Origin: Candidatus Doudnabacteria bacterium
GTDB taxonomy: Bacteria; Patescibacteriota; Doudnabacteria; UBA920
DNA: 64,000 nucleotides
NCBI GenBank assembly: GCA_963837465.1
Contig: CAWINB010000001.1
Coordinates: 437,646-501,645, forward strand
Direction: 5' to 3'
Shown one piece after another: positions 5,235 to 47,645 of this stretch. Below the pieces are notes generated by a model. The model did no database searches. It saw only the letters and a list, made by a program, of their open reading frames with translations, and had not been told where the DNA came from. The first letter of the stretch is position 1; each line of letters opens with the position of its first letter. A program made the translations under genes and the position numbers.

Positions 5235-5396
5235 GAAGCTGTTTAAAAAGTCATTTGGGCCGCAATTCCAGAATGTTTGGCGCCTTGCCGGAAAAAATTT
5301 TTCCGCTTAGCTTTAGGCTAAACGTCAAAATTTGTTTCCGTCAATCCGCGCAAAATTCTGTAATTTCGCCTACAAAGCACTTTTTAAACATCTTCT
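5235..5396 (+). mobile_element. MITE family 1, copy R1 (162 bp; TIR GAAGCTGTTTAAAAAG / CTTTTTAAACATCTTC; flanking TGA/TGA duplication)
   Basis: Near-identical copies at 26685-26845 and 34507-34668 in opposite orientation; 16-nt terminal inverted repeats; 3-bp TNA direct repeats. Confidence 0.8.
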
Positions 5397-5629
5397 GAGA
5401 GAATCTGACCTTATTGAGCGATATGAAGAAAACATAATGCTAGGACTGTGCGATCAAGCCAGCCACACTGGTTTTATGGATGCCTGTACAAATTTTCCAA
5501 AAAACGACCAATACGCCCAATCAATAGTTACTAGAAAAATTAGTATAACAGAGAAAGATAGGCTCATATTGTCCCAGGCGTACCAAGATGGTTACGCAAG
5601 AGGATTAATTAAAAAAGCAAGAATCGACA

Positions 5630-5737
5630 ATGAACGACTTAAATGAAAAATGCGGAGTCTTTGGGATTTTTGGTAAGAACTTGGACGTCAGCCGTCTGAC
5701 TTTTTACGGTTTGTTCGCGCTGCAGCATCGGGGTTAG
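5630..5737 (+). pseudogene. purF: purF N-terminal segment (propeptide MNDLNEK, then Cys1 nucleophile CGVFGIFG…LQHRG) ending at an in-frame TAG (5735-5737) where homologues have Gln
   Basis: Same frame as the downstream purF ORF; aligns with B. subtilis PurF MLAEIKGLNEECGVFGIWG…LQHRGQEGAG. Confidence 0.7.
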
Positions 5738-5755
5738 GAGTCATCGGGAATTGCC

Positions 5756-7051
5756 GTGTCCGATGGCAACCATATGGATGCTTACAAAAATATGGGTTTG
5801 GTAACACAGGTTTACAAAGAAGAAACCATTCAAAACCTTAAAGGGCATATTGCCATTGGCCACAATCGATATTCTACATCCGAAGGCTCGCACATCAAAC
5901 ACGCCCAACCAATAGTCATAAACAACCAACTGGCCCTGGCGCACAACGGCAATTTGCCATCGGTAAAAGCTTTAAAAGAATTTTTGGAAGCCAAGGATAT
6001 CGCCACAAATGACTGCAGTGATTCCGAGCTGATGGCAAAAGCGCTGGGTTATTATTTGGAACATGGCAACTCCATTAAAGACGCGGTTATAAAAGCTTAT
6101 CCGCTTTTTACCGGCGCTTTTTGTTTGACAATTTTAACCAAAGATTGTTTGGTGGCCGTAAGGGATACTTATGGCGTGCGACCGCTTTCCCTTGGCAAAA
6201 TAAATGGCGACGCGACTGTTGTAGCTTCGGAAACCTGCGCTTTCCACACCGTGGGCGCGGAATTTACGCGCGAAGTCCAGCCGGGTGAAATGGTTATTGT
6301 CAGCGACAAGGGAATTGAATCGGTGCAGATAGAACCGTCCCAAACCAAACTGGATATTTTTGAATTTGTTTATTTCGCGCGGCCCGACAGCCAAATTCTG
6401 GGCAAATCCGTTTACCAGGTCCGGCGCGACTCCGGCATCCAGCTGGCCAGGGAATGCCCCATTGATGCCGACATAATCGTACCCGTGCCGGAAACCGCGC
6501 TGCCGGTTGCCACCGGCTACAGCAAGCAAAGCGGCATTCCCATGGAAATGGCTTTGGTAAAAAACCGCTACATCCACCGCACTTTCATCCAGCCCGAACA
6601 GCACAGCCGCGACCTGGGGGTAAAATTAAAGCTCACTCCCCTGCCCGAAATTTTATCCGGCAAAAAAATTGTGGTAATGGACGACTCTATTGTAAGGGGC
6701 ACCACCTCGCGTCAATTGGTAAAAATGTTGTTTGAGGCGGGATGCGAGGAAGTCCATATGCTCATAAGTTCGCCGCCGGTAAAATTTCCGGACTTTTACG
6801 GCATAGACACGCCCAAGCAAAAAGATTTAATCGCCGCGCGTAAAACCGTGGAAGAAATCAGGATGTATTTGGGCGCGACTTCGCTTTACTTTTTATCTTT
6901 AAAAGGCTTAATAGAAGCCACCGGACTTTCCGAAGATGTTTTTTGCACCTCCTGCTTCACCGGAAAATATCCCATAGATTTACTGGAACGCGAGACTGAA
7001 GTTCAGCAGCCGACATACGCGGAAATTAAATCTCCGGGCGCTTTATTTTAA
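5756..7051 (+). CDS. purF: Amidophosphoribosyltransferase PurF, the portion downstream of the in-frame TAG; the functional gene would be 5630..7051
   Basis: ESSGIAVSDG…IGHNRYSTSEG (Ntn glutaminase domain) and C-terminal PRTase domain (VVMDDSIVRGTT); the ORF track starts at a GTG directly after the TAG. Confidence 0.85.
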   Translation: MSDGNHMDAYKNMGLVTQVYKEETIQNLKGHIAIGHNRYSTSEGSHIKHAQPIVINNQLALAHNGNLPSVKALKEFLEAKDIATNDCSDSELMAKALGYYLEHGNSIKDAVIKAYPLFTGAFCLTILTKDCLVAVRDTYGVRPLSLGKINGDATVVASETCAFHTVGAEFTREVQPGEMVIVSDKGIESVQIEPSQTKLDIFEFVYFARPDSQILGKSVYQVRRDSGIQLARECPIDADIIVPVPETALPVATGYSKQSGIPMEMALVKNRYIHRTFIQPEQHSRDLGVKLKLTPLPEILSGKKIVVMDDSIVRGTTSRQLVKMLFEAGCEEVHMLISSPPVKFPDFYGIDTPKQKDLIAARKTVEEIRMYLGATSLYFLSLKGLIEATGLSEDVFCTSCFTGKYPIDLLERETEVQQPTYAEIKSPGALF

Positions 7052-7127
7052 CTTAAAAGCGCCATCCCGGAATTTTAAGGGCTGTTAAAATATCCAGGAT
7101 CCAGAACCATACAACATAGTTATAAAT

Positions 7128-7724
7128 ATGCAAATTGTAATCCTAATTTCCAACGCCGGAACCGGCACTAATTTGCAGGCTATCATTAACGGCATTGGGG
7201 CCGGCCAAATAAAAGCCCGAATCGCGGCGGTGATTTGCGACAAAGCCGGCGCGCCGGGACTGGAGCGCGCTGAAAAAAGTAATTTACCCGCAAAAATTTG
7301 CCCGAAAAAAGAGGAATTGCTGCCGCTGCTAAAAAAACTTAATCCCGATTACATTTGCCTGGCCGGCTGGAAACAAATAATTCTGGACGAAGTTATTTTG
7401 GCTTTTCCAAACAAAATTTTAAATCTGCATCCGGGCTTAATTCCCGACAGAGCCGATGGTAGCGTAAAAAATCCCGACGGCACAGAGGGGCTTTGGAACA
7501 AAGGCATGTTGACCACAAAAGCTATTCAAAATTTCTTGGACCAAAAGGCCACGTTCGCCGGCTCATCCATCCATTTTTTATCTCTGGAATTTGATTTTGG
7601 CCCGGTGCTGGGCAGGTGTTTTGAAAAAATTGCGGCTGGCGATACGGTTGATGATTTGTATAAAAGACTGAAGGAAAAAGAAAACCGGTTGTACGTGGAA
7701 GTTTTAACAAAGCTTAACGGGTGA
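7128..7724 (+). CDS. purN: Phosphoribosylglycinamide formyltransferase PurN (with an insertion of about 18 aa)
   Basis: N-terminal MQIVILISNAGTGTNLQAII and NLHPGLIP motifs; TGA stop. Confidence 0.8.
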   Translation: MQIVILISNAGTGTNLQAIINGIGAGQIKARIAAVICDKAGAPGLERAEKSNLPAKICPKKEELLPLLKKLNPDYICLAGWKQIILDEVILAFPNKILNLHPGLIPDRADGSVKNPDGTEGLWNKGMLTTKAIQNFLDQKATFAGSSIHFLSLEFDFGPVLGRCFEKIAAGDTVDDLYKRLKEKENRLYVEVLTKLNG

Positions 7725-7757
7725 TAATTTTGTCAATTTCTTAATTTTTGTTCAATT

Positions 7758-9164
7758 ATGGCAAATATTCTTGTCATCGGCTCGGGAGGGCGCGAACACG
7801 CTTTGGCGTGGAAGCTTAAGCAGTCGCCCAAGGTCGGCAAAATTTTTGCGGCGCCGGGGAACGGCGGCAGTTCTTTGCTGGCGGAAAATGTGGAGATTAA
7901 AGCTACAGACGTTTTGGCTTTGGCCGACTGGGCGGAAAACAATAAAATTGATTTTACGGTGGTCGGGCCGGATGACGCCCTGGCTTTGGGTATTGTGGAT
8001 GAATTCCAAAAAAGAGGCCTTAAAATTTGGGGGCCGGGCAAAGCCGCGGCTAAAATTGAATCCAGTAAGGCTTTTGCCAAAAAGCTGATGGAAGAAAATG
8101 ATATTCCGACGGCGGAGTTTAAGGTTTTTAATGATTACGGTCAAGCATTGTTATACGTTCAAAGCCATTTCCAAGGTAGCGTGCCCATCGCGTATCAAAG
8201 TATGGGACAAGCTTATGGGCGTCCTAGTTCGCCCATAAATGGGCACGCTACAAGACCCGTTGTCATCAAAGCCTCGGGCCTGGCCTTGGGCAAAGGCGTT
8301 GCCGTGTGCGAAACCTTGGACGAGGCCAAAAACTTTTTGCAAGACGTTATGGTCAATAAAATTTTCGGCGACTCCGGAAGTGAAGTCGTCATAGAAGAAT
8401 TTTTACAGGGCCGGGAATTTTCCGTCCACGCTTTTTGCGACGGCAAAAACTTTAAGCTTTTTCCGTCGGCGCAGGATCATAAAACCATTTACGACAATGA
8501 CCAAGGCCCCAACACCGGCGGTATGGGCGCCATTGCTCCGGTGCCGTGGGTTACAAATGACCTGATGAAACAAGTATCGTCGGAGATTGTAAAACCCGCG
8601 CTGGAAGGTTTAAAAAATCTGGGCTCGCCGTTTGTGGGGTTATTATATCCGGGATTGATGGCAATAACAGCCGATAAATCGGCTAACTACGCGGCTTTTG
8701 TAGTCAGCCCATTTATGGGCTCAATCAAAATTATAGAATTCAACGCCCGTTTCGGCGACCCCGAAACCCAAAGCTATATGCGCCTGCTGAAAACAGATCT
8801 TTACGATATTTTAGAAGCCTGCGTCAACGGCAGTTTGGACAAAATCAATATTGAGTGGTCAAAAAAGTCGGCCTGCTGCATAGTTTTAGCCAGCGGCGGC
8901 TACCCCGGCGAATACAAAAAAGGTTTGCCCATTACGGGAATTGCGGACGCGGAAAAAATGGATGATATCATAATTTTCCACGCCGGAACGGCAATCAAAG
9001 ATGGTCAATTAGTTACCAACGGTGGCCGCGTTTTAGGAGTCACGGCAATTGCAGATGATTTACAGACAGCGCTCAACAAAGCCTACACAGCCATCAAGCT
9101 AATCAATTTTAAAGGAATGCGATACAGAAGCGATATCGGGCAAAAAACTTTAACCTATGTTTGA
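7758..9164 (+). CDS. purD: Phosphoribosylamine-glycine ligase PurD carrying two in-frame palindromic insertions
   Basis: MANILVIGSGGREHALAWKL, VIKASGLALGKGV, GPNTGGMGA, EFNARFGDPETQ; TGA stop overlapping the next ATG (ATGTTTGA). Confidence 0.9.
   Translation: MANILVIGSGGREHALAWKLKQSPKVGKIFAAPGNGGSSLLAENVEIKATDVLALADWAENNKIDFTVVGPDDALALGIVDEFQKRGLKIWGPGKAAAKIESSKAFAKKLMEENDIPTAEFKVFNDYGQALLYVQSHFQGSVPIAYQSMGQAYGRPSSPINGHATRPVVIKASGLALGKGVAVCETLDEAKNFLQDVMVNKIFGDSGSEVVIEEFLQGREFSVHAFCDGKNFKLFPSAQDHKTIYDNDQGPNTGGMGAIAPVPWVTNDLMKQVSSEIVKPALEGLKNLGSPFVGLLYPGLMAITADKSANYAAFVVSPFMGSIKIIEFNARFGDPETQSYMRLLKTDLYDILEACVNGSLDKINIEWSKKSACCIVLASGGYPGEYKKGLPITGIADAEKMDDIIIFHAGTAIKDGQLVTNGGRVLGVTAIADDLQTALNKAYTAIKLINFKGMRYRSDIGQKTLTYV
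8176..8251. repeat. Divergent family A-like palindromic element in-frame inside purD (arms gtagcgtgcccat / atgggcacgctac; inner gcccataaatgggc)
   Basis: 13-nt perfect inverted arms; encodes about 25 extra residues relative to E. coli PurD just before the VIKADG motif. Confidence 0.7.
8667..8722. repeat. Family A palindromic element in-frame inside purD, in right-half then left-half order (aacagccgataaatcggctaactac … gtagtcagcccatttatgggct); encodes AITADKSANYAAFVVSPFMGS
   Basis: About 20-aa insertion between the conserved GLM and KVIEFN(C/A)RFGDPETQ motifs. Confidence 0.8.
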
Positions 9165-10672: not shown

Positions 10673-10716
10673 TAATATAAAGTTATAAATCTAATATTCT
10701 AAATCTTACATCTTAT

Positions 10717-11231: not shown

Positions 11232-11297
11232 GTAGTTAGCCCTATTTTCTGGGCTGTCCCCTACCATAAATTAACAGCCGATAAATCGGCTAACTAC
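11232..11297. repeat. Family A palindromic element, copy filling the purE-purM spacer
   Basis: gtagttagccctattttctgggctgtcc…aacagccgataaatcggctaactac. Confidence 0.85.
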
Positions 11298-11306
11298 AAA
11301 AACACG

Positions 11307-13526: not shown

Positions 13527-13603
13527 TTAGCCCATTTATGGGCTGTTGAAATATTACTGTTGTTATTTAATAGTTTTGAACAGCCCATAAATGGGCTAAC
13601 TAC
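13523..13603. repeat. Family A palindromic element filling the purC-purB spacer (it overlaps the purC stop codon)
   Basis: gtagttagcccatttatgggctgtt…aacagcccataaatgggctaactac. Confidence 0.85.
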
Positions 13604-13607
13604 AACT

Positions 13608-14993
13608 ATGCTAAACTCCATCTCTCCTATCGACGGCCGCTACGGCAAAACCACCGAATCTTTAGCTAAATATTTCAGCGAAGCCGCGCTTATGAAATTC
13701 CGCCTTATTGTTGAAGGTGAATATTTAATCGCGCTGGCGGATTTAAAAGTCGCGCGGAAATTATCGGACAAAGAAAAGCAAACCATCCGCTCTTTGTATA
13801 ACTTGTCTGAAACCGATGCCCAAATAATTTCCGATATAGAAACCAGGGGCTACAAAAACATAAAAGCCACGGACCATGACGTTAAAGCCGTGGAGTATTT
13901 TATGAAGTATAAACTGGCAGAGACATCATTAAAAGATATTTTGGAATATCTGCATTTTGCGCTGACTTCCTATGATACCAATACTGTTGCTCGTGGATTA
14001 ATGCTAAGCGACGGCTTGGGGAACATCTTGCTGCCAAAAATTGATGAAATCATCAAAGCTTTAAACACTCTGGCAAAAAAATATGTTAGGCTGGCAATTT
14101 TAGCCCGCACTCACGGCCAGCCCGCTTCTCCAACGACTTTTGGCAAGGAATTTAAAGTCTTTGCGTTTCGTCTGGAAAAACAAATTCGATTACTTAAAAA
14201 TTTAAAAGTTTCGGTCAAATTCAGCGGCGCCAGCGGCAACTACAATGCCCATATGGCAGCTTATCCTAAAATTAATTGGTTAAAATTTTCGCAAAAATTC
14301 GTGGGGGGGTTTAATAAAAATCGAGCGGTTAAAATCGAGCTGAACGAAATTGCCACCCAAATTGACCCTCACGACCGCGAAGCGGAAATTTTTGACTGCC
14401 TGCGCCGCATTAATACTATCCTCATAGATTTTAACCAGGACATCTGGCGCTATATTTCCGATGATTGGATTGTTCAAAAACCAGTTGAGGGCGCCGTCGG
14501 CAGCAGCACAATGCCGCACAAAGTTAATCCGATTAAATTTGAGAACAGCGAAGGCAACCTGGGGCTGGCCAACGCGCTGTTTGAATTTTTCGCCCGCAAA
14601 CTGCCTGTTAGCCGGCTGCAAAGGGACTTGTCGGATTCCACGGTTGAGAGAAATTTCGGGACCGCTTTGGCGCACTGCTTAATCGCCTACGAATATCTGC
14701 TCAAAGGATTGTCGCGAATAACCATTAACGAACAAAAAGTCCGCGCCGACTTAAACAGCCATCCGGAAATTTTGGCCGAAGCCATGCAAACCGTCCTGCG
14801 GCGCGAAGGCCTTAAAATGCCTTATGAACAACTAAAGGAATTAACCCGCGGCAGACAAATCACTCTGGCTGACCTTCATAAATTTATTGGCGAGCTGAAC
14901 ATTAGCGATAAAGTAAAAAAAGAGCTCAAAACGTTTACTCCGGAAAATTATATTGGCCTGGCAAGCAAATTATCATCGGATAAATTTAAATAA
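13608..14993 (+). CDS. purB: Adenylosuccinate lyase PurB
   Basis: MLNSISPIDGRYG aligns with the E. coli PurB N-terminus (SPVDGRYG); HDVKAVEYF, SSTMPHKVNP; start is ATG 13608, the ORF track start at 13560 lies inside the repeat. Confidence 0.9.
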   Translation: MLNSISPIDGRYGKTTESLAKYFSEAALMKFRLIVEGEYLIALADLKVARKLSDKEKQTIRSLYNLSETDAQIISDIETRGYKNIKATDHDVKAVEYFMKYKLAETSLKDILEYLHFALTSYDTNTVARGLMLSDGLGNILLPKIDEIIKALNTLAKKYVRLAILARTHGQPASPTTFGKEFKVFAFRLEKQIRLLKNLKVSVKFSGASGNYNAHMAAYPKINWLKFSQKFVGGFNKNRAVKIELNEIATQIDPHDREAEIFDCLRRINTILIDFNQDIWRYISDDWIVQKPVEGAVGSSTMPHKVNPIKFENSEGNLGLANALFEFFARKLPVSRLQRDLSDSTVERNFGTALAHCLIAYEYLLKGLSRITINEQKVRADLNSHPEILAEAMQTVLRREGLKMPYEQLKELTRGRQITLADLHKFIGELNISDKVKKELKTFTPENYIGLASKLSSDKFK

Positions 14994-23082: not shown

Positions 23083-23235
23083 GAAGCTGTTTTAAAAACA
23101 AATGGACAGTTTTTTGGAAACGGATAACACTGATAATTACGCATTCTATCCGTGTTATCTGTTTTAAATCCGTGTCATCTGTGTTTATGTTCTGTACAAA
23201 CCTGTCCCAAAATAAGTTCACAATTATTTTATATG

Positions 23236-24976: not shown

Positions 24977-25420
24977 ATGTCAAAAAAACGATTTGCCGAA
25001 GCCGCTTTTATGGTCGGTAGTTTATTGGCTGGGGAAGCCGCTGGCCAAAATAAGCAAGCCGAAACTAAAGCACCCCAAAAAACCGAACAAACAAAAAAGG
25101 GAGAAACAGCAGTAGACCCCGAAATTAAAGCAGCCCTTGAGGAGCAGGCAATAAGATTAAAAAATCCGGAAAATGCAAAAGACCCGGGACTGGTTAAATT
25201 TATTGAGCAATCGGCTTATAAGAAAATTGCGAAAATCGTTGTTGAAAGATTGGGCAAATATAACAAACCTGGACTTTTAACAGACCAGCTACAAGCAGAC
25301 CTAAAAGTTGAAGCAAAAAAATTAGGCTTGACTTATGATATGCTCGGCAAATGTATTGAAGCAGCCGATAGCGATAAAGCTTTTTTATACTCTCTTGCTA
25401 AATTAATTCCGATTATATAA
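24977..25420 (+). CDS. Hypothetical protein whose last about 11 codons are supplied by the IS630 terminal repeat
   Basis: The ORF runs into the IS TIR (…YSLAKLIPII*). Confidence 0.4.
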   Translation: MSKKRFAEAAFMVGSLLAGEAAGQNKQAETKAPQKTEQTKKGETAVDPEIKAALEEQAIRLKNPENAKDPGLVKFIEQSAYKKIAKIVVERLGKYNKPGLLTDQLQADLKVEAKKLGLTYDMLGKCIEAADSDKAFLYSLAKLIPII

Positions 25421-25988
25421 TTTCAAAATTAAGAGTTAATAGTGTTTTAAGCTCCGCTTTGTACTGAGATATGTTTTTAAAGAAATCATGTATGGCGATT
25501 GTAAACTCCTGAAAGGTTTTGTAGTACTTGTTGGCTTTAACTTTCTTTTTCATGAATTTCCAGAGGCGTTCAATCAAGTTTAAGTTGGGAGAATACGGCG
25601 GCAGGAACAACAGCTCAATGCCCAGATGTTTCGCTTCCTCGTTGGCCTGCTTGCTATGGTTGTACTTGGCGTTATCCAGGAAAATGTATATGGTTTTAGC
25701 TTTAGGATAATCTTTTCTGACTTCCCCTAAGAATATTGTCATCATTTGCCCGTCACAGTTATCTTCGGTCGTCAAAATAGTGGGTTTAAAAGCTACGGGG
25801 TTGATAGCGCCAATAACAGTTAATCTTTCCCGGCCGCTGTTTGAAGGAACCTTTTTAGTTTCACTTTTACCTTTAAGTTGCCAGCAGTAGCTATTGTCAG
25901 CATTATGGACCAGGTGAGCGGGGTCTAAAAACAGCACGATGCCTTTGTCTTTATCAGCTTTCTTTATGGTTTTAAAGATTAATTTCAC
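25413..25988 (-). CDS. IS630-family transposase, DDE catalytic part (orfB), in a different frame from orfA
   Basis: DDE-domain-like sequence (…LFLDNAKYNHS…LPPYSPNLNLIE…). Confidence 0.7.
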   Translation of the reverse strand: MKLIFKTIKKADKDKGIVLFLDPAHLVHNADNSYCWQLKGKSETKKVPSNSGRERLTVIGAINPVAFKPTILTTEDNCDGQMMTIFLGEVRKDYPKAKTIYIFLDNAKYNHSKQANEEAKHLGIELLFLPPYSPNLNLIERLWKFMKKKVKANKYYKTFQEFTIAIHDFFKNISQYKAELKTLLTLNFEII

Positions 25989-26029
25989 AAAATCTTCCTG
26001 GGTCTCTCTGTCAGGCGCGCCGCTGGGAA

Positions 26030-26449
26030 CTATATGGGTTTTTTTGTAAGATAAATTGAGTTTTTTTTACAGCAGCGAAACAGCCAGCTTTGTTCCATCT
26101 CAATTGAATATTTTTCCTTAATCCAGGCCTGCATTTCAGCTAAAGTCGTAATAGTGTTGTCTTTTACATCTTGTTTGATTTGGTCTACATAATCATTAAT
26201 TTTTGACTTCCGTTTATCTTTAAATTGTAGCTTGCGTAGTCCCTGTAGTTTCTCGGATTGATAGATTTTTATCCAGTCTGTAATCGTATCCACGCAGACA
26301 TTAAACGCTTCCGCGATCTCCTGATGGTTTTGCCCCTGGTTCAGTAACTTTATGGCCTCCAGACGGCGCAGAACTCTGACATTTTTTTCCTGTTCCTGAA
26401 GTTGTTTAATCTTTTTAAGCTCACTGACGGACAGTTTTATTTGGTACAT
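26030..26449 (-). CDS. IS630-family transposase, N-terminal HTH part (orfA)
   Basis: HTH-rich N-terminus typical of IS630 transposases; a T8/A8 run (26046-26054) near the frame junction. Confidence 0.7.
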   Translation of the reverse strand: MYQIKLSVSELKKIKQLQEQEKNVRVLRRLEAIKLLNQGQNHQEIAEAFNVCVDTITDWIKIYQSEKLQGLRKLQFKDKRKSKINDYVDQIKQDVKDNTITTLAEMQAWIKEKYSIEMEQSWLFRCCKKNSIYLTKKPI

Positions 26450-26684
26450 TTTGTTAGGGTTAAGGCTCTTGGCCTTATTCTAACATTTCGGAATTAATTT
26501 AGCAAGAGAGTATACACAGAGTTCAACTTGATTTAGGGGTTTCGGTAGATGACATAAAAGGGCCACCCAACATTTTCAAAAAAGAATAATCAAACTTTTA
26601 CTAAAAACTTATCCAACTGTTTTACCGCATACCCGTAACTTCCAGCGATTTGCACCCAATCCATAGTTCTATAATCGTCCCTAA

Positions 26685-26845
26685 GAAGATGTTTAAAAAG
26701 TGCTTTGTAGGCGAAATTACAGAATTTTGCGCGGATTGACGGAAACAAATTTTGACGTTTAGCCTAAAGCTAAGCGGAAAAATTTTTTCCGGCAAGGCGC
26801 CAAACATTCCGGAATTGCGGCCCAAATGACTTTTTAAACAGCTTC
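26685..26845 (-). mobile_element. MITE family 1, copy R2 (TAA/TAA duplication)
   Basis: Reverse complement of R1 with terminal GAAGATGTTTAAAAAG / CTTTTTAAACAGCTTC. Confidence 0.8.
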
Positions 26846-27036
26846 TAAGACCGCTCCACAAAAAACATCATCTTTCGTATGATGTTTTTTGTTTGCGCTT
26901 AAAGGCAATTATGACTCTGAGCTTAAAATTATATGGGAGAGCTGTAGTAGGGAATAAATATCGCCTGATTGACTAAAACCGCCAAAAACTATACAATACA
27001 TCCATAAATCCTACCCCGCAGCCGGGGTATATTTTT

Positions 27037-30772: not shown

Positions 30773-30799
30773 AAATTTTAAGCCGCGGCAAAATTACTT

Positions 30800-31501
30800 T
30801 TAAGGCAGGCTCTGAACCTTTTGCGGCACAGGTTCAATTTTTCTTATTTTGTAACCGGTGCCGTGCACGGTAACTATCAGCGGATCCGGCGAACTGCCGT
30901 CTATTTTGGAGCGCAGGCGGCTTAAATAAACATCTATAATATTGCTTTTAACGTAATTAAAACCCCAAACGTGCTCGTTAATCATGGTGCGGCTGCAGAC
31001 CAAACCGGGATTGCGCAACAAGTATTCCAAAATCCGGTACTCCTTGCTGGTTAATGCTATGGCAGCCCCGTTGCGAGTAACTTCGTGGCTGCCGGGATCC
31101 AAAACCAAATCACCGGTGGTGAGCAGGGTGGGGGTTAATTGATTGGTGCGGCGGGTTAAAGCGCGGATGCGCGCGACCAGCTCATTTAATTCAAAGGGCT
31201 TAATCATATAGTCGTCCGCGCCCAGGTTCAGCCCCGAAACTTTATCCTGGGACATATCCCTGGCTGTTAACATCAGCACGGGAACTTTCAAGCCCAGTTT
31301 GCGGATTTGCCGGCAAACCTCAAACCCGTCTTTGCCCGGCAACATAACATCCAAAATAATTAAGTCGTAATCGTAAATCTCGGCGCGCTTAATCCCCTCC
31401 TCGCCGCTGCCCGCAACCTCCACCGTAAACTGCTCATGTTCCAGGGCTTTTTTTATAAAAGTCGCGATTTTTGGCTCATCTTCCACCAATAAAATAACCA
31501 T
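30800..31501 (-). CDS. OmpR-family response regulator
   Basis: Receiver domain (LVEDEP…DVMLPGKDG) plus winged-helix C-terminus. Confidence 0.85.
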   Translation of the reverse strand: MVILLVEDEPKIATFIKKALEHEQFTVEVAGSGEEGIKRAEIYDYDLIILDVMLPGKDGFEVCRQIRKLGLKVPVLMLTARDMSQDKVSGLNLGADDYMIKPFELNELVARIRALTRRTNQLTPTLLTTGDLVLDPGSHEVTRNGAAIALTSKEYRILEYLLRNPGLVCSRTMINEHVWGFNYVKSNIIDVYLSRLRSKIDGSSPDPLIVTVHGTGYKIRKIEPVPQKVQSLP

Positions 31502-32544: not shown

Positions 32545-34116
32545 ATGATACACAAAAAAATAGCTTTACTTAACCAAACCACTTTGGAATCGCTGAAACT
32601 GAACGACAGGGATATTATTTTAAAAAAGTTTATGCAAACCGGCATAAAAATTTTAAGAGCCGATTTTGGCTGGGCGTGGTGGAAAATTGACAAAAAATAT
32701 TCATTGGCTTATAAAAGCTCAAAAACCCCTTACAATCCTAACTATCCGCGCAGGCGAGGGGGAAATTACGTGGCCCAAAAAACAAAAAAACCTCTTTTTG
32801 TCGGTGACGTTAATAAGAAACCTGTGGTAATAAAACACCAAGTAGGGCCTTACATGAAGGCTTACGTAATAATTCCGATTTTTTCAAAAAAAAATAGCTA
32901 TGGCAACATGGTTTTTTGCTTTAAAAAAGCACATTTGTTCTCTCCTGAGGAGCAAGCCTTGTGCGCCGCTTTAAGCAGTGCAGCCGCCCAGGCAATCACT
33001 ATTCACCGCCTAGTAACCAGCGAACGCAAAGCTCGTACAGAAGCCGAACAGCATTCCAGCAGATTCAGGGCGCTGATTGAGAACAGCCACGATACTATTA
33101 TTTTAATCAGCGGTAAAGGAAAAATTTTATATGTCAGCCCTTCGGTAAAAAGAAATTCCGGCTACGGGCCTGAAGAATTAGTCGGCCATGACCAGACTGA
33201 TTTTATTTATCCCGGTGATATTGCCAAGGTAGCAACGGAGATGGGCAAAATTTTACAAAACCCCCAGGCTACAACGACTATCGAGTTCCGCTACCGGCAT
33301 AAAAACGGCGCGTGGCGCTGGCTGGAATCCACGGCTATGAATATGCTCCACAACCAGCATGTACGCTGTATTGTCATAAACGCGCGCGATGTTACCGAGC
33401 GGCGGCGGCTGGACGAAGACGCAAAAAACCTGATGAAGCAGAAAGACGAATTTTTCAGCGTGGCCAGCCACGAACTTAAAACTCCGGTTACCACCATAAA
33501 AGGCTTTAGCCAGCTGCTGTCACAAAGACTGGAAAAAAAGGACAAAAAATCCAGGCAATTTTTAGCGACCATCAATTCGCACGCCGACAAGCTCAACCAT
33601 TTAATCAACGATTTCCTGGATGTTTCGCGTATCAGCACCGGAAAGCTAAAATTCCGCTACGGAACTTTTAACCTGACGGTTCTGGCCAAAAAAACAATCG
33701 CCGACCTGAAGGTTATAATTCATTCCCACAATATAACTTTTAAAAACAGCGAAGATTTTTGGATCGCGGGAGACCAGGAACGCGTCGGCGAGGTGATTAC
33801 CAACCTGCTTACCAACGCCGCCAAGTACTCCCCCGCCGGATCCAAAATTATTTTAAGCATCACCGGGGAAAAACAGCGGGTTAAAGTCTCGGTGGAAGAT
33901 TTCGGCATCGGCATTCCCAAAAAATTACGCCACAAAATTTTCACCCGTTTCTTCCAGGCTAAAACCCATTCCGCCCAGGCTTTTCCGGGGTTGGGCCTGG
34001 GTTTGTATATCTCTTCGGTTATAATTAAGGAACATAAAGGAAGTCTGGACTTCGTAAGTAAAAATAAGGGCAGCATTTTTTATTTTATCCTTCCTGTAAA
34101 AAATTCCCGTGAATAA
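32545..34116 (+). CDS. Cytoplasmic sensor histidine kinase (GAF-like, PAS, HisKA, HATPase)
   Basis: SHELKTPVTTIKG H-box, N/G boxes (NLLTNAAKYS, DFGIGI, GLGLGL). Confidence 0.8.
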   Translation: MIHKKIALLNQTTLESLKLNDRDIILKKFMQTGIKILRADFGWAWWKIDKKYSLAYKSSKTPYNPNYPRRRGGNYVAQKTKKPLFVGDVNKKPVVIKHQVGPYMKAYVIIPIFSKKNSYGNMVFCFKKAHLFSPEEQALCAALSSAAAQAITIHRLVTSERKARTEAEQHSSRFRALIENSHDTIILISGKGKILYVSPSVKRNSGYGPEELVGHDQTDFIYPGDIAKVATEMGKILQNPQATTTIEFRYRHKNGAWRWLESTAMNMLHNQHVRCIVINARDVTERRRLDEDAKNLMKQKDEFFSVASHELKTPVTTIKGFSQLLSQRLEKKDKKSRQFLATINSHADKLNHLINDFLDVSRISTGKLKFRYGTFNLTVLAKKTIADLKVIIHSHNITFKNSEDFWIAGDQERVGEVITNLLTNAAKYSPAGSKIILSITGEKQRVKVSVEDFGIGIPKKLRHKIFTRFFQAKTHSAQAFPGLGLGLYISSVIIKEHKGSLDFVSKNKGSIFYFILPVKNSRE

Positions 34117-34495
34117 GAACCCGGCTAAAAAAATCCTGGTGGCGGAGGACGACCCGGGCATAACCGAGCTTATGAAAATAGCCTTAACCGGCCGGGGCTA
34201 TAAAATTTTAACGTGCGCCGACGGCTACAGGGTTCCGGGCGCGGTGGCCAAATTCGGGCCCGACCTGATTATTATGGATTTATGGCTGCCCGGAATTGAC
34301 GGGCAAAAACTGACAAAAAGGCTGAAAACCCAACCCGAAACCAAGGACATACCGATTGTCATAGTTTCGGCGCAAAGAAGACTTTCGGAAGTTGTAAAAA
34401 AATTTAAAGCGGACGGACATGTTTCCAAACCTTTTGATGTTAATAACTTGCTGAATTACGTTGAAAAATTTCTTTACCCGGATAGACAATTTTAA
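34109..34495 (+). CDS. Single-domain (CheY-like) response regulator
   Basis: ILVAEDDP…IIMDLWLPGIDG…SKPF. Confidence 0.8.
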   Translation: MNKNPAKKILVAEDDPGITELMKIALTGRGYKILTCADGYRVPGAVAKFGPDLIIMDLWLPGIDGQKLTKRLKTQPETKDIPIVIVSAQRRLSEVVKKFKADGHVSKPFDVNNLLNYVEKFLYPDRQF

Positions 34496-34506
34496 ACAGG
34501 CTCTTA

Positions 34507-34668
34507 GAAGATGTTTAAAAAGTGCTTTGTAGGCGAAATTACAGAATTTTGCGCGGATTGACGGAAACAAATTTTGACGTTTAGCCTAAAGCTAAGCGGA
34601 TAAATTTTTTCCGGCAAGGCGCCAAACATTCTGGAATCGCGGCCCAAATGACTTTTTAAACAGCTTCT
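34507..34668 (-). mobile_element. MITE family 1, copy R3 (TTA/TTA duplication)
   Basis: Same TIRs; interior about 95% identical to R2. Confidence 0.8.
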
Positions 34669-34671
34669 TAG

Positions 34672-34741
34672 AGGCTGTCGGAAAGTGGCTTTCGCCGGAA
34701 AATTCTGAAATCGCGGCAGAAATGGATCTTTTCAGACAGCC
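34672..34741. mobile_element. MITE family 2 (70 bp; TIR GAGGCTGTCGGAAAG / CTTTTCAGACAGCCTC) inserted immediately beside R3 and sharing its TTA
   Basis: A homologous copy lies at 51077-51147. Confidence 0.6.
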
Positions 34742-34751
34742 TCTTAACGCT

Positions 34752-35234
34752 CTATGGTTCCACGTTTAAGCTTACCCTGTTGGTACCGTCGCAATAAACA
34801 GGGCCCTGTCCCAATAAATCGGCTGTGACAATAGCGTAACCGTAACCGCCTATTGTAAGCGTTTGGTTCTCAAACTTAAAAGTATGCGGCGCCGGGTCGC
34901 GGTTATCCAGCATAAATTTGTCGCCTTTGCGTATGGCCAGACTGCCGATGGCGCCGGGGAAACTTACCGTAGCCTCGCACTGGTCAAATTGGATGCGGTA
35001 GGGATATTCAGCCAGAGCCTCGGTGTAAGCCGAGTTGCCGGATGCCGCGGCTGGCGGAACAGCAACCGCGGTGGAAGAAGCGGTGCTTGTGGCCGACGAC
35101 TGGCTTACCGAAGTTTGGACGGAGCCGGAATTTATGGCTACGGGAGCATTTTTGTCGCTTTCATGGTAAATTATCGCCCCCACTACGACTATAACCACGA
35201 TCGCGCCCGCAAGATAATAATAAGGCTTTTTCAT
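34752..35234 (-). CDS. Membrane-anchored protein with a conserved C-terminal QFDQC…LDNRDPA…GYGY…CDG domain; paralogue of 37830..38291
   Basis: N-terminal TM helix, Ser/Ala linker, conserved C-terminal domain shared with the paralogue. Confidence 0.5.
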   Translation of the reverse strand: MKKPYYYLAGAIVVIVVVGAIIYHESDKNAPVAINSGSVQTSVSQSSATSTASSTAVAVPPAAASGNSAYTEALAEYPYRIQFDQCEATVSFPGAIGSLAIRKGDKFMLDNRDPAPHTFKFENQTLTIGGYGYAIVTADLLGQGPVYCDGTNRVSLNVEP

Positions 35235-35299
35235 AAAGTTGTTTCCTTTCAGCAGAATTTTAACATACAAAAAATTAAAGAAACATTAACTTTATGGAT

Positions 35300-36850
35300 T
35301 TATTCTTGATTTGAAGCATAGGCATAGCCGGCTATTTCTTTGTCGCTTAAAATAATCAGCTTGTTTAAATTCAGTCCCAAACTATCAAGCACGCTTATGG
35401 ACGGAATGCCGCTTTTTTGGCCGCCTACTACCAGATAAACCGTAGGGTTATCCGGGGATTTAATCAGACTGCCATCGGGAACGGTAACCGGGTCAGGAGC
35501 CACGTCCCGCGAATTAAACAAGACAGAGGGAACGGTCTGGACCGAAACCCAATTGTAGCCGCGCGCCATAAAAACCTGGGCGCCGCTAAAAGGAACCAGC
35601 CAGCCGTTTTGAACCAGATAAACGGTGGGGTTGCCGCTGAACATCACCAGTTCGCCCTGGGAAAAATTGGGCAACGGAGCCGGAGGATTGGCGGCAGCGG
35701 TGCTTAAAGCTGGGGAAGTTGCTGTTAAATTAAAGGGCAAGGAATTACTGGTACCATTGCTGTTGATTACGGAAACGCCGTAGGCTCCGGGAGTAATTAA
35801 TGACGGGAATGAATTACAAGCGTTGCCGGCGGCGGGCGCGCAACCTTGGATTTGCCCGGGGACAGCGAATTGCAAAGTCATGCCATCGGGAGAGCTTAGG
35901 TTATTGATATAAGTATTCGGTCCGAACTGGACGGCATTACCGCTTTGCGTAAAACCCAAACCGCTTATAGTCAGCATCATGCCTATGAATCCGGAACTGG
36001 CGCTTAATTGGGTAATAACCGGCGTTGTGGCGGAAGCTACGGCTGAACCCGAAACAGGCAAGCTGGGCGAAGCCGTTAAATTAAACAGGCCAGCGCTGCT
36101 GCCTATCAGGCTGTTGCCATCCGGATTTACCACGCTGAGCAAATATTGCCCCGGCGGAATAATATTGCCCGCCGTGTCGGTATTAATATTCCAAGAGTAA
36201 GAGCCGGTATTGGGGATATTGGAGGCGATGGTATAAACGGTAGTTGTTGAAATACCGGAAGCAGAACAGGACGCGCTGTCGCAAGCCGGTACCAATAAAA
36301 GATTTACCGCGGGTGCCGCGGGCGCGGTGGATGAAGCCGTGGGCCAGCTTATGATTTTAGCGCTGCCTATGACCCAGGACTCTCCACCGTTAGGCGAAAT
36401 TATAGGCGAAGAACTCAGATAAGGGTTGGACGGAATAATATTAAATTGGCCGCTTGTGCCCTCGGCGCTGCTGTCGGCAAGGCCGACTTCCACGGTTACG
36501 GGGCCAGGATAAATTTCAGGCAAGGTAACCGGTACCGTCCACTCGTAACTGCCGGTGTTGGGAATGTTCTCGGCAATCACATAAGGCACCAAAGCGCCGG
36601 CGCCGCAACTGCTTGAACTGGCGCATGAGGAAACCGGGTTTAAAGTAATAAAAACTTTAGCCGGTTGCTGGTTTATGTAAACCGGAGAAGACAATGAACC
36701 GGAGGTCCAGGTAATATTTTGCGTACTGCCGGCTGTCCACAGCTGCCCCGAAGCAGGAGAATCCACCAGCAAGCTGGCTGCCTGGGCGCTGGAAGCAGCC
36801 CACAGGCTGCATCCGGAAAAAAGCAGGACGAGAAAAGTTTTGAGTTTCAT
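35300..36850 (-). CDS. Large secreted Ser/Thr/Gly-rich surface protein with a C-terminal NPTVYLV…SGIPS…SLGLNL domain; paralogue of 42343..43549
   Basis: Signal peptide; repeated IPNTGSY(E/S)W modules; shared C-terminal domain. Confidence 0.55.
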   Translation of the reverse strand: MKLKTFLVLLFSGCSLWAASSAQAASLLVDSPASGQLWTAGSTQNITWTSGSLSSPVYINQQPAKVFITLNPVSSCASSSSCGAGALVPYVIAENIPNTGSYEWTVPVTLPEIYPGPVTVEVGLADSSAEGTSGQFNIIPSNPYLSSSPIISPNGGESWVIGSAKIISWPTASSTAPAAPAVNLLLVPACDSASCSASGISTTTVYTIASNIPNTGSYSWNINTDTAGNIIPPGQYLLSVVNPDGNSLIGSSAGLFNLTASPSLPVSGSAVASATTPVITQLSASSGFIGMMLTISGLGFTQSGNAVQFGPNTYINNLSSPDGMTLQFAVPGQIQGCAPAAGNACNSFPSLITPGAYGVSVINSNGTSNSLPFNLTATSPALSTAAANPPAPLPNFSQGELVMFSGNPTVYLVQNGWLVPFSGAQVFMARGYNWVSVQTVPSVLFNSRDVAPDPVTVPDGSLIKSPDNPTVYLVVGGQKSGIPSISVLDSLGLNLNKLIILSDKEIAGYAYASNQE

Positions 36851-37123
36851 AAAATCAAATTTCCATCAGAACCTGTTTGAAAAATAATTTTTAAAACAGG
36901 TTTTAAGTTATTAAAGTTGTCTGTTATTATACGGGTATTTTCAATAAATGCGTTGCTCCTATTTATTATACGTACCTAAGACCATTTTACGTGCCTGGAA
37001 TTAATAACTCATTAAAATATTTTCATAAAATCGCAAGGTTTTAAAACTAGTGTTTGTTCACACGACAGCTAAAAAGACGCCTTCGCAGTGGCGTCTTTTT
37101 TACCGGAACCTATTTACTTGAAC

Positions 37124-37829: not shown

Positions 37830-38291
37830 CTATTTTTCCACGTTCAGCGTCACCCGGGGCTTGCCGTCACAGCTGACAGTCAAGTTGCCCAGGACTTCTG
37901 GATAAAACACATCGTAGCCATAACCGGCTATGTCATAAGTCCGGGTATCGGCTTTAAAAACATGAGCGGCAGGGTCGCGGTTATCCAGCATTACGGGCGT
38001 GCCTTTTCTTACAGCGATGGTGGCAGGAGTACCCTGGCACTGGTCAAACTGGAAACGTTCGGGATAGGCTTTTAGGGCCGCTTCATAGGAAAGTTTTTGC
38101 GCGGGAACCGCGGCGCTGGCTGGAGTGGAAGTTGGGGTTGTTGTGGCGACAGCGGCGCCACCGGAGCTGCCCGATTGCGCAGCTTGCTGGGCGTTATTCT
38201 GGCTGTTTTTATCGCTCAGAGCATAAATACCCCAAATGATAAGGGCCAGCGCTGCTACGCCAACGGCGGCGTAAGTGTATTTTTTATTCAT
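37830..38291 (-). CDS. Membrane-anchored QFDQC-domain protein (paralogue of 34752..35234)
   Basis: Shares YPERFQFDQC…MLDNRDPAAH…GYGY…CDG…RVTLNVE with its paralogue. Confidence 0.5.
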   Translation of the reverse strand: MNKKYTYAAVGVAALALIIWGIYALSDKNSQNNAQQAAQSGSSGGAAVATTTPTSTPASAAVPAQKLSYEAALKAYPERFQFDQCQGTPATIAVRKGTPVMLDNRDPAAHVFKADTRTYDIAGYGYDVFYPEVLGNLTVSCDGKPRVTLNVEK

Positions 38292-38545
38292 AAAATCAAA
38301 ATTAGTTTAGAAGCTGTTTAATTAAGTCTTTCTTTCTCAAAATATCTGACCCGGCAAAAAAACCGCTATTCGGCATTTTTGCGATTCTTTCCCTGTCGTA
38401 CCATCGATAAACCTCCCCGAAGAAAAGTAATACCTATACCCGCGGCACGCAGCATTAACTTATTAATGGCTTCTACTGGATAAGAAAGCCAATATTTTAA
38501 GTCTACAGCAGTTGGCGACTAAAGACCAGCGCGGATCCATATTAA

Positions 38546-39153: not shown

Positions 39154-39402
39154 GAAATTGATTTTTTAAGAACCTATTTTAATTTAAAAATACTTCGGGC
39201 TGCGATTTATTTTTCAAATAGGTTTAAATAATTATAAAAAAATCCGCGTCCGCATATATTAAAATACGATGAATATTTTATTTTGGGTGCATTGCCTCCG
39301 TTATTGTCAGGACTTACGCTTTTGACAATATTACCCTGGGTATTGTCCAATCAGCTTTTAAAAAAGCCGTAATTTAGACCCCGAAAGCGTAAGTCCTGAT
39401 TA

Positions 39403-41562: not shown

Positions 41563-41933
41563 AATAAAATATAGTTAGTTACCTAATAATAAGGCAACTA
41601 AATATATTTGTCAATAGCTTATTATGACGCCTTTAATTTACGGGTGAATAAAAATCGCCGCCGGCCCCGGCGACTTTTGGCAAGTAACCGCGACGATAAA
41701 AATTCAGCCGGCAAATCACCCTGAACAAACCAAGCTGAAAAAAAGATTAAAAATTTCTTTAAGATTATTTTCAGCTTCGGCATGATAAAATTTAATACCT
41801 ACGCAAAAATAAAGTTGTCGGTTATAAATAAGCCATTGCTGTTAACCTTTCCGAAGTTCCGAAGCCGAAAAAAAAAGAGCCGAAGTTTTTAGAGAACCGC
41901 GATAAAAATTAATCAAGGAAGAAGGTGATTAAT

Positions 41934-42179
41934 ATGAGTAAACTAGGTTTATTTTTAAACTCTTTATTTTATTCCAATAATCTTGCTTCATTTCCGGAAA
42001 AAAATATAAACCCGCTCCTCTACAAACAGCTCTATGTGGCAGGCATAAAAGGGCTGGGCGGAATCGGCAAGTATGAGTTTCCGCGTGGTTTGGGCATGGC
42101 CCTGAAGGGAAAACAGAACCAGATGGCGCGGCGCGGGAAGCCGTCACGCAAACTCTTCAGAATTACCGCTTTTGTTTAG
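41934..42179 (+). CDS. Small basic hypothetical protein (81 aa) whose stop lies in the MITE R4 target duplication
   Basis: ATG with AAGGAAGAAGGTGA RBS; TAG stop at the MITE junction. Confidence 0.35.
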   Translation: MSKLGLFLNSLFYSNNLASFPEKNINPLLYKQLYVAGIKGLGGIGKYEFPRGLGMALKGKQNQMARRGKPSRKLFRITAFV

Positions 42180-42251
42180 AGCCTGTTTAAAAATTCATTT
42201 TGGCCGCAATTTCAGGAATCCGCCCGCAAAAGCAATTTATTAAACAGGCTC
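42179..42251. mobile_element. MITE family 1, internally deleted copy R4 (73 bp; TIR GAGCCTGTTTAAAAA; TTA/TTA duplication)
   Basis: The ends and part of the interior match R1-R3. Confidence 0.65.
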
Positions 42252-42342
42252 TTAGAATCTATGATCAATAATTAAACCAAGGGTCCGGGATTTTCTTCCA
42301 AACTGTGTGGATAAAATTTCCAAAACCCGGAAACAATAACCA

Positions 42343-43549: not shown

Positions 43550-43657
43550 TAATCGGAGCTGCCAGAACCCGTTTGAAAAACAGGGGACAAATTTACGGAA
43601 ACGGGTAAACAGTGGCAAAACCAGCCAACCCTTGCCGTGCTTTGCGCTCTTTAAAAA

Positions 43658-43888: not shown

Positions 43889-43900
43889 AACGAAAACCTG

Positions 43901-44626: not shown

Positions 44627-44700
44627 ATTAATATTGTAACATTTTCGCATAACGCGCGGTAGCTAAAACCCGGAGTATTTGTTATTATCATCTCATTAAG

Positions 44701-45725: not shown

Positions 45726-45807
45726 TTTGGAATAAACCCGAATTCTATTTATAATATATACGGATTCTATAAAATCAACATCAATACCGCGGATAAAATA
45801 AAAATTT

Positions 45808-46230
45808 ATGGTCGTGATCCCAACTCCAACAATATCGCCTCAAATTCCGACGCCGCCTGTGGCAGCTGCCACAGGCGCCATTTGCCCCTTTTGCCACCAG
45901 CCGGTTCTGGCCCAGTACTATTTTTGCCCCAACTGCGGCAAGAAGCTGGAGGACGGGCCGCTGTCCACATCCTTCTGGTCGCGACTTTGGCTTTACACTT
46001 TTAGCCTGATTATCATGCCCCTGACCTGCTATCTTGTTTACGCCCGCTGGCAGGGAATAAAATATTTTAAATCCAAAGACCCCAAGGCCCACCGCATGGG
46101 GCTTGTGGCTATTGCCCTGCTTATAATTTCAATAGTTTTTCTGGTTTGGTCAACCTGGCAGGGAACGATATGGCTGGAACAGTATGCCCAAACCCAGGTA
46201 AACAGCGCGGCCAGCCTGGGAGGGTTATAA
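45808..46230 (+). CDS. Zinc-ribbon (CPFC…CPNC) plus transmembrane protein
   Basis: CxxC…CxxC followed by two hydrophobic helices. Confidence 0.45.
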   Translation: MVVIPTPTISPQIPTPPVAAATGAICPFCHQPVLAQYYFCPNCGKKLEDGPLSTSFWSRLWLYTFSLIIMPLTCYLVYARWQGIKYFKSKDPKAHRMGLVAIALLIISIVFLVWSTWQGTIWLEQYAQTQVNSAASLGGL

Positions 46231-46234
46231 TTTT

Positions 46235-47449
46235 CTAGGAGCTTATTACTACATTTGTGATGCTGTATATTTCCCCCAAATTGTAAAAGGCGGCAAAATT
46301 AATATCTTTGCCGCTGGGGACATAGGGATCGCGCATTATGTAATTGCCGCCGCTGCCGCTGACGAGCACCACAAAGTGCGTGCCGCCATAAACATTCATG
46401 CCAATAACCACCGGATTCCCGGTTGCGAGCGTCGCGTCAATTGCCGCGGTTTTGCGCGTAGCGGTTACGCCGTCAACATTAATGCTGTTTAAAAGATAGG
46501 ACGGATAATAGACGGCAAAATTTGTGGGATTGGAGTTGATGGTGGCCGGAGTCACATCCCGATAACCATAATGGGTCATAACCATGGCCATGGCCGTAAC
46601 CAGACAACCATCGCCGGCCATGGTGTAAGCGGTGCCGTCCAAAGCATCGCCTCCCCAGGCCGAGTCGCGCTGATTGTAGTAACAGCCCCAGGCATCGCAA
46701 ACAGTCTGGTTTCCCAACAGCTGGTCGCCGCCGGCATGCTGGGTAAACTTGGAAAAACTTTCAACCTGCGCTTCGGCCTGCGCGAGAAGTTTTTGGTAAG
46801 TTGATTCTTTGTTCTTGGTCTCGGCCAAAAGCTGATTCTTTGATTGTACGGTCGCGTTAAGCGACTGCCGCTGCGAGACCAAGGATTTATTTTGCGCCGA
46901 AAGAGTCTGCTCTTTCCGCTGCACCGCGCTTTGCGTGTCAGCCAATAAAGTCTCCGCCGCCTGCAGCTGCTGGGTTTTTTGTCTGACCGCGTCCTGAACC
47001 TGGGTAGCCTCGTCAACATTTTGCCAAAAACCGGACAAGCTGCCGGCCGAAAATAACTGAAAAATCGCCGGCTGGCCGTCGGATTGCTGGATCTCTTCCA
47101 GATCCTTTGAAAGCGAACTCTGATACTGGACTATGGTTTGTTTTGTGTCCTGAATCTGGCCGTCTAACTGCTGGACCTGAAGCTGGGTTGAATTAATCTG
47201 GCTTTGGGTGGCGGCAACCTGGGTTTCCACCTCTTCCCGCTTTAAATCAAGGGTCTTAAGCGCTGTCTGAAGGGTTTTTTTGTCCGAGCCCGCTTGTTTA
47301 AGCTCGGCCTGGTACTGGGCGATTTGCTTGTTAAGCGCCGCAATCTGCTGGTTGTCGGCGCTTATCTGGTTTTGCAGGTTGCTTGAAGCCGCGGGGACGT
47401 CTACGGTCGTCGGAGCGACATAAGACAGGGCAAATACCGGAAACGCCAT
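46235..47449 (-). CDS. Secreted coiled-coil protein with a C-terminal papain-like (C39/CHAP-type) peptidase domain, PcsB-like putative cell-wall hydrolase
   Basis: Signal peptide MAFPVFALSYV; long Gln-rich coiled coil; C-terminal Cys/His domain (…CDAWGCYY…GGTHFVVLV…); the ORF-track N-extension runs through a MITE and is rejected. Confidence 0.5.
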   Translation of the reverse strand: MAFPVFALSYVAPTTVDVPAASSNLQNQISADNQQIAALNKQIAQYQAELKQAGSDKKTLQTALKTLDLKREEVETQVAATQSQINSTQLQVQQLDGQIQDTKQTIVQYQSSLSKDLEEIQQSDGQPAIFQLFSAGSLSGFWQNVDEATQVQDAVRQKTQQLQAAETLLADTQSAVQRKEQTLSAQNKSLVSQRQSLNATVQSKNQLLAETKNKESTYQKLLAQAEAQVESFSKFTQHAGGDQLLGNQTVCDAWGCYYNQRDSAWGGDALDGTAYTMAGDGCLVTAMAMVMTHYGYRDVTPATINSNPTNFAVYYPSYLLNSINVDGVTATRKTAAIDATLATGNPVVIGMNVYGGTHFVVLVSGSGGNYIMRDPYVPSGKDINFAAFYNLGEIYSITNVVISS

Positions 47450-47484
47450 TAACTCTCCCGCGACCCGCGCCAAAATAAATATAG

Positions 47485-47645
47485 AAGCTATCTTAAAAAT
47501 AGTTCGCAGGCGAAATTGCGGTAATTTCCGGCAGATTGACCCAAATAAATTTTGACGTTCAGCCAAAGCTGAGCGGAAAAATTTTTTGGGGCAAAATGAC
47601 GAAATTCCGCGATTGCAGCCCAAAAGATTTTTAAGATGGGTTCCG
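47485..47645 (-). mobile_element. MITE family 1, degenerate copy R5
   Basis: Interior aligns with R2; TIR partly eroded; a solo TIR fragment gaagctatcttaaaaaaat also occurs at 61617-61635. Confidence 0.55.

Follow-up and report, generated by a model that had tools for sequence, protein, structure and literature searches.

A very probable, recently active foldback MITE family in a 64-kb stretch of a Candidatus Doudnabacteria genome

The 64-kb stretch of bacterial DNA analyzed here (the window, from contig CAWINB010000001.1 of a metagenome-assembled genome, MAG) carries a family of repeats that is very probably a recently active, foldback MITE (short for miniature inverted-repeat transposable element). 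Its elements, 161 bp or 73-75 bp long and devoid of a transposase or any other gene, are likely to be non-coding, non-autonomous derivatives of a cut-and-paste DDE transposon. A previous reading of the sequence only had proposed a MITE family with three full copies, one deletion derivative, one degenerate copy and a solo terminal inverted repeat (TIR). All six features are present within 1-2 nt of the positions then assigned, and the MITE interpretation agrees with the TIRs, the target-site duplications (TSDs), the near-identical copies at unrelated intergenic sites, the lack of coding capacity and the shorter derivatives. The count was too low, however, as it missed two short forms, a 55-bp pair, a 35-bp palindrome and further solo termini; the family occupies about 1.5% of the window. 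The census, the tests of TIRs and TSDs and the search for a transposase cover this window of the host genome. In a protein search, the nearest named relative of the PurQ encoded here is a Ca. Doudnabacteria protein (77% identical), followed by many Patescibacteria, and the host is therefore a bacterium of the Candidate Phyla Radiation (CPR).

The element had been given as 162 bp, but without the duplication each of the three full copies is 161 bp long. Copy 1 (5235-5395, plus strand) equals the three-copy consensus and is flanked by TGA at 5232-5234 and 5396-5398. Copy 2 (26685-26845, minus strand) has a single substitution and is flanked by TTA, in element orientation, at 26682-26684 and 26846-26848, while copy 3 (34507-34667, minus strand) has two substitutions and TAA, also in element orientation, at 34504-34506 and 34668-34670. 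Over the whole length these two are 99.4% and 98.8% identical to copy 1 (BLASTN); the flanks of the three copies are unrelated, with no extended flanking homology seen. Three near-identical copies at unrelated sites represent a recent burst. The element occupies the same three sites in the only other assembly of the organism (Logan, ERR10755945; 99.95% identical). At one junction each of copies 1, 2 and 3, contigs of this second assembly run from the unique flank into the element and end there after 26-29 nt, and one of them extends exactly from copy 2 to copy 3. These breakpoints support both the junctions and the dispersed-repeat nature of the element.

The TIRs and TNA duplications claimed for the family were recovered with numbers attached. 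The TIRs of the full copies are 16 nt long (GAAGMTGTTTAAAAAG; termini GAAGCTGTTTAAAAAG and GAAGATGTTTAAAAAG), match at 15 of 16 positions and extend to 27 nt at 85%. The TIR pattern originally described, allowing up to two mismatches, matches seven times against 0.13 expected from shuffles, and the arm alignment shows it to be conserved across subfamilies. Five elements have identical 3-nt flanks: TGA, TTA and TAA at the full copies, TTA at a short form at 42179-42251 and TAA at another at 34671-34743. The middle base of the duplication varies and yet agrees on both sides in all five (about 1e-3 by chance even with T and A fixed), which argues for a staggered DDE cut. The observed target context is (a/c/t)TNA followed by G, the base after the target being G in five of five, and copy 3 sits in a palindromic target, CTCTAAGAG.

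The element is also a foldback. The sequence-only reading had described 16 nt of inverted repeat, but the whole element is an imperfect palindrome, matching its own reverse complement at about 76% over the full length, and it forms a single long hairpin, with a minimum free energy of -58.9 kcal/mol and z = -6.4 as RNA, and z = -7.3 as DNA. The conservation of this fold could be assessed on an old copy at 47484-47643 (minus strand; termini GAACCCATCTTAAAAAT and GAAGCTATCTTAAAAAT), which belongs to a diverged subfamily and is 77% identical (nhmmer E = 2.6e-45). It had been called degenerate; it is indeed diverged, but it is full length. Compared with the young consensus over 65 stem pairs, and thus with effectively two lineages, ten pairs are changed on both sides and all ten remain Watson-Crick, while six are changed on one side and five of these lose pairing. 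Changes co-occur in pair partners (Fisher p = 3e-7), against 0-2 double changes in controls in which the partner was slid by 1-3 columns, and the divergence between old and young is 47% in unpaired and 20% in paired columns. Since the changes on both sides all keep pairing, the foldback is conserved. The arms retain shared left/right asymmetries, so the pairing is not accounted for by one arm simply having been regenerated from its partner. It is therefore probable that the structure, whether hairpin or cruciform and whether of DNA or of RNA, has a part in how the element spreads or is tolerated. Mismatches of the old copy have no strand preference, C·A mismatches being about as many as G·U pairs, so the comparison does not tell DNA from RNA as the folded species.

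How would such an element move? In the mechanism we propose, a transposase encoded elsewhere would bind the two 16-nt TIRs, excise the element and insert it at a staggered cut in TNA, and repair of the stagger would duplicate 3 bp. The enzyme, acting in trans, would belong to the IS5/PIF-Harbinger (PHIS) superfamily. The terminus has GAAGnTG...AAGT in common with the end of Escherichia coli IS5 (GGAAGGTGCGAAYAAGT; GGAAGGTGCGAAYAAG). IS5 itself duplicates 4 bp; its IS1031 group is known for 3-bp TNA duplications and GAG ends. Duplications of 3 bp, including C-TNA-G, are characteristic of the IS5-related PHIS superfamily (PMC4482050). An IS5/PHIS-type transposon would be the most likely parent, an attribution that draws only on the TNA duplication and on ends that resemble those of IS5 weakly, and that is about equally likely to be right or wrong.

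The absence of a cognate transposase from the window, claimed previously, was confirmed by Pfam scans of 50 open reading frames (ORFs) and by reading by eye the translations of the other ORFs in the first half, which are pur genes and ABC transporters. The only transposase present is that of an IS630-family element (25388-26512) with perfect 25-nt TIRs (TACTCTCTTGCTAAATTAATTCCGA), a TA duplication and helix-turn-helix (HTH) and DDE_3 domains. This is excluded as a partner by its unrelated TIRs and by a duplication of TA, not TNA. Its transposase is split between an HTH ORF (26030-26449) and a DDE_3 ORF (25413-25988) and so is frameshifted or inactivated. Beside the solo terminus at 61617, two ORFs of the size of a frameshifted IS5-type pair were considered as a transposase and rejected, as they encode SnoaL-like proteins.

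Several observations weigh against a recently active, DDE-mobilized MITE. No autonomous element with matching ends was found in the window, nor in genome, metagenome and viral collections. A scan for the 23-nt terminus GAAGMTGTTTAAAAAGTSMTTTG gave one locus in genome contigs and three in metagenome contigs, all chance matches to the terminus only with no family interior (one Bacteroidales locus seen three times and one AT-rich contig). Viral contigs gave no match, either to both TIRs at the right spacing or to the extended terminus, and BLASTN of the element against plasmids returned only chance matches of 20-26 nt. The nearest relatives (77-78% identical in PurQ) lack the family and yield no empty site: the pur operon is syntenic, its purQ-purF spacer being just 0-35 bp in two of them, and a search of about 48 kb of unique DNA from their syntenic loci (nhmmer, arm profile) found no family member. 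At this level of identity the spacers are not alignable, so that the comparison shows absence of the family there, not a precise empty site. In addition, the ends are only modestly like those of IS5 (about 12-13 of 17 positions agree, with one indel, as judged by eye), the consistency of TIRs and TSDs was seen within 64 kb only, the old copy has no matching flanks and no intact TSD, and a simple DDE model does not require a conserved foldback.

This last point leads to the rival explanations, all of which we consider less satisfactory. It is possible, but unlikely, that the foldback itself is the functional unit and that the element spreads or persists only with its stem of about 65 bp intact. 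Transposition would then act on an extruded hairpin or cruciform and still produce a 3-bp duplication, or else an RNA hairpin, as an operon-internal stabilizer or attenuator, would benefit the host in a streamlined CPR genome; under such a scheme the transposase might come from outside the tiny genome, from a host, a co-resident organism or a phage.

Very unlikely, in our view, is that the repeats are genes for structured non-coding RNAs, or hairpins that regulate in cis (as terminator, attenuator or stabilizer of mRNA), kept in sequence and fold by host selection, with mobility incidental or absent. The ten coordinated changes that keep pairing and the faster divergence of unpaired positions would fit such a role, as would copies in transcribed places (the pur operon, 5' leaders and 3' ends) and the precedent of bcr1, a MITE-like repeat that is transcribed and shows compensatory changes (PMC3184786). 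The sequence-only reading had itself named a conserved RNA with no consistent TIR/TSD structure as the outcome that would speak against a MITE; compensatory conservation of the foldback is indeed seen, but so is a clean TIR/TSD structure, and the two go together in bcr1 as well (PMC3184786). Copies that are 99% identical in unrelated settings and carry TSDs require transposition, no family member is found in the loci of relatives that were searched, and, as noted above, the mismatches of the old copy have no strand preference. Within the window nothing matched Rfam at the gathering threshold, and a permissive E-value threshold brought up miRNA-hairpin noise only, all of it sub-threshold; scans for promoter and terminator consensus sequences found nothing above background inside the element, hence no convincing promoter or intrinsic terminator. 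Exaptation may nevertheless have been added on top of mobility.

A REPIN- or PATE-like origin, in which a long hairpin is spread as folded single-stranded DNA by an HUH/Y1 transposase (RAYT or IS200/IS605 TnpA), is more improbable again. It would account for a full-length hairpin with compensatory conservation of pairing; moreover, a gene within the syntenic pur operon of close relatives has a weak Y1_Tnp match and the window contains a separate family of REP-like 34-nt hairpins. HUH elements, however, make no target duplication, while five members here have matching 3-nt flanks with a variable middle base, and this disfavors HUH/Y1 mobilization. The ends are true TIRs conserved across subfamilies, the REP-like family is unrelated in sequence to the MITE, and no Y1-looking gene was found in the window by Pfam scans and by reading translations by eye. 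Finally, a repeat misplaced or collapsed during assembly, a known risk with MAGs since repeats confuse short-read assemblers, is scarcely credible when each copy has unique flanks on both sides, its own TSD and its own substitutions, and when the Logan assembly independently joins flanks to element at copies 1, 2 and 3.

The recently active MITE family that we favor also has older subfamilies, short derivatives and nested or abutting insertions. A 73-bp short form at 42179-42251 (plus strand; termini GAGCCTGTTTAA) is flanked by TTA on both sides. A second one at 34671-34743 (minus strand; termini GAGGCTGTC(T/G)GAAA), missed previously, has TAA on both sides and adjoins copy 3, one TAA being common to both. 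A third form of about 75 bp, likewise missed, lies at about 51077-51151 (plus strand) between T(T/A)A and TAA, with boundaries ambiguous by 1 nt, and is roughly 80% like 34671-34743 when compared by eye. In the arm alignment, one arm of the short elements matches the left-type and the other the right-type arm of the long form; since the arms thus keep the left/right differences of the long form, the short forms are internal-deletion derivatives. The element at 42179-42251 had been described as a deletion derivative, correctly as to the internal deletion, but of a sister subfamily and not of the young one: the short-form subfamilies end in GAGCC or GAGGC, the young subfamily in GAAGC. Smaller still are two micro-palindromes of about 55 bp at 39170-39226 and 51340-51392 (91% identical over 44 nt), the first with family-like termini GAACCTATTT...AAATAGGTTT, and a 35-bp palindrome at 36869-36903 formed by two family-like termini back to back (GAACCTGTTTGAAAAATAATTTTTAAAACAGGTTT), whose membership is uncertain.

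About seven solo termini are found in the window. The one already reported, at 61617-61635 (plus strand), reads TTA followed by GAAGCTATCTTAAAAA and lies upstream of a SnoaL-like gene, 10 nt from its start, with neither a partner terminus nor an adjacent transposase; it shares sequence (TAGAAGCTATCTTAAAAA) with one end of the old copy. Others are at 23083-23098 (plus strand; TAA, the stop codon of a Fur-family gene, followed by GAAGCTGTTTTAAAAA), at 34488-34503 (minus strand; TAA followed by GAGCCTGTTTAAAATT), overlapping a CheY-like gene and supplying its stop (34493-34495), and at 38310-38324 (plus strand; TTA followed by GAAGCTGTTTAAT), 18 nt upstream of where gene 37830-38291 begins. A terminus-like sequence at 30788-30814 (minus strand; TCA followed by GAGCCTGCCTTAAAAG) encodes the final codons and the stop of the response-regulator gene 30800-31501, and looser pattern or arm searches added further solo termini at 43565 and 19748. 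With a looser terminus pattern (TNAGARSCTRTYTTAAAAA, up to two mismatches) there are 14 matches against 0.13 expected, the 10-nt core of the terminus matches 22 times against 4 expected, and a profile of the 40-nt arm detects 12 arms at E < 1e-4 plus weaker ones. The order at 34488-34746 (short element, TAA, copy 3, TAA, solo terminus) indicates that the young copy 3 inserted in a TAA between older family ends. Clustering and nesting are known for pneumococcal repeats (PMC10969869).

Every family member is intergenic or overlaps just the final codons of genes, and the gene contexts given in the sequence-only reading (purQ/purF, the IS630, the CheY-like receiver gene and the leader of a PcsB-like gene, here a coiled-coil/C39-like peptidase gene) were all found. 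Bacterial MITEs are on record as clustering between genes, nesting in one another and inserting within operons (PMC10969869). The consequences for the host are local: copy 1, which follows the purQ stop (5228) and precedes a small ORF (5438-5646) and then purF (ATG at 5630), places a long hairpin in the pur operon transcript, and other copies occupy 5' leaders or the space between convergent genes. Copy 2 is separated by 170 bp from the IS630 (right end) and is upstream of an ABC-F ATPase gene, copy 3 lies between convergent genes, and the old copy 10-34 nt upstream of the likely start of the peptidase gene, which is probably a TTG or an ATG preceded by GGGAGAG. The AT-rich ends (TTTAAA) give stop codons to adjacent ORFs. 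At 42179-42251, the TSD and the first TIR base make up the TAG stop of ORF 41913-42176, in line with the claim that one copy supplies the stop of a small ORF. The stop and last codons of two response-regulator genes, the CheY-like 34109-34495 (GAGCCTGTTTAAAA) and the OmpR-type 30800-31501 (GAGCCTGCCTTAAAAG), fall within terminus-like sequence, and old insertions may have remodeled the 3' ends of both. As anticipated, the copies also generate spurious conserved ORFs. Those within the element are short (20-55 aa) and spread over several frames on both strands, and those running into the flanks reach 104 aa; an exact protein look-up gave no record for an internal 47-aa ORF, and the concatenated six-frame peptides of the element found nothing among 5.8 billion proteins.

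Among known systems, Correia (Neisseria), RUP (pneumococcus) and ERIC elements duplicate TA, with IS630/Tc1-like or unknown partners, whereas the element described here duplicates TNA. REPINs (RAYT/Y1) are likewise long extragenic hairpins with conserved pairing but are not known to have a TIR-plus-TSD architecture; TSDs are present here. The MITEs of the IS5-family/PHIS group (IS1031/IS427/ISL2-type IS groups in bacteria; Tourist/mPIF and NuwaII in eukaryotes) are also short and non-coding with TIRs, and the ends here begin with GA(A/G) as theirs do; NuwaII (C-TNA-G) shares the 3-bp TNA duplication and the G after the target (PMC4482050). A full-length conserved foldback is, however, not among their defining features. 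Correia, RUP and ERIC resemble the present family in size (100-160 bp), TIRs, intergenic location, hairpin transcripts and clustering or nesting (PMC10969869; PMC3184786). The bcr1 repeat of the Bacillus cereus group is similar in length (about 155 bp), dispersal, short direct repeats, long fold and compensatory changes (PMC3184786), but differs in its 5-bp direct repeats and Firmicute host and has no sequence similarity to the element. Chunjie, in Geobacter uraniireducens, is also recently active, inserts inside an operon without breaking genes and has size variants and partial copies (PMC10969869); at 178-235 bp it is longer, its TIRs being 21 bp and its direct repeats 9 bp (PMC3184786).

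Other features of the window lie close to the family. Directly beside copy 2, at 26858-26892, there is an AT-rich hairpin with a perfect 14-bp stem (ACAAAAAACATCAT...ATGATGTTTTTTGT), which may be a bidirectional terminator at the insertion site. The genes 34752-35270 and 37830-38291 are paralogs (DNA repeats D6 and D9) coding for small proteins that are secreted or in the membrane. Genes 35300-36850 and 37830-38291 are similar in their first bases and 5' leaders (36846-36878 and 38287-38319), and in both a MITE-like terminus stands 18 nt upstream of the start codon. The REP-like hairpins (AACAGCCCATAAATGGGCTAACTAC) are located at 913-946, 1368-1401, 4400-4433, 8659-8692, 11266-11299 and 13572-13605, mostly in or around spacers of the pur operon, and in one relative (locus L010) the gene with the weak Y1_Tnp (PF01797) match lies between purC and purB (14244-14657); this suggests a REP/RAYT-type system in this lineage.

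Downstream of copy 1, purF (5630-7051) encodes a protein 82% and 81% identical, over its full length, to the PurF of two relatives. It contains an in-frame TAG at 5735-5737 (...HRG*ESSG) where both relatives whose DNA was read have CAG (Gln36); the other genes of the window read normally with table 11. The TAG could mean a nonsense mutation or a pseudogene, a sequencing error, or read-through. The small ORF 5438-5646 (69 aa) overlaps the start of purF, and two relatives have a 76-83-aa ORF in the purQ-purF spacer (e.g., L008 10811-11041), alike in position. Unrelated to the MITE is a 220-nt direct repeat of 71% identity (50398-50617 and 59614-59833), close to genes for ArsR-type regulators and AHSA1-like proteins.

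Elements of this kind are well known (Correia, RUP, ERIC, Chunjie and bcr1), and bacterial MITEs provide precedents for insertion within an operon, for nesting, for variation in size and for a conserved structure (PMC10969869; PMC3184786). The sequence family and its host are new. Full-text literature searches found no paper describing MITEs in Patescibacteria or the CPR, where genomes are small and streamlined and an expanding repeat family would be notable for that reason. The burst of 99%-identical copies means that a streamlined CPR genome can still host active non-autonomous transposons. There are practical effects as well, since the element breaks short-read assemblies, produces spurious conserved ORFs and alters gene ends. 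The conserved foldback, in turn, offers a small system in which selection on a selfish element's secondary structure could be tested.

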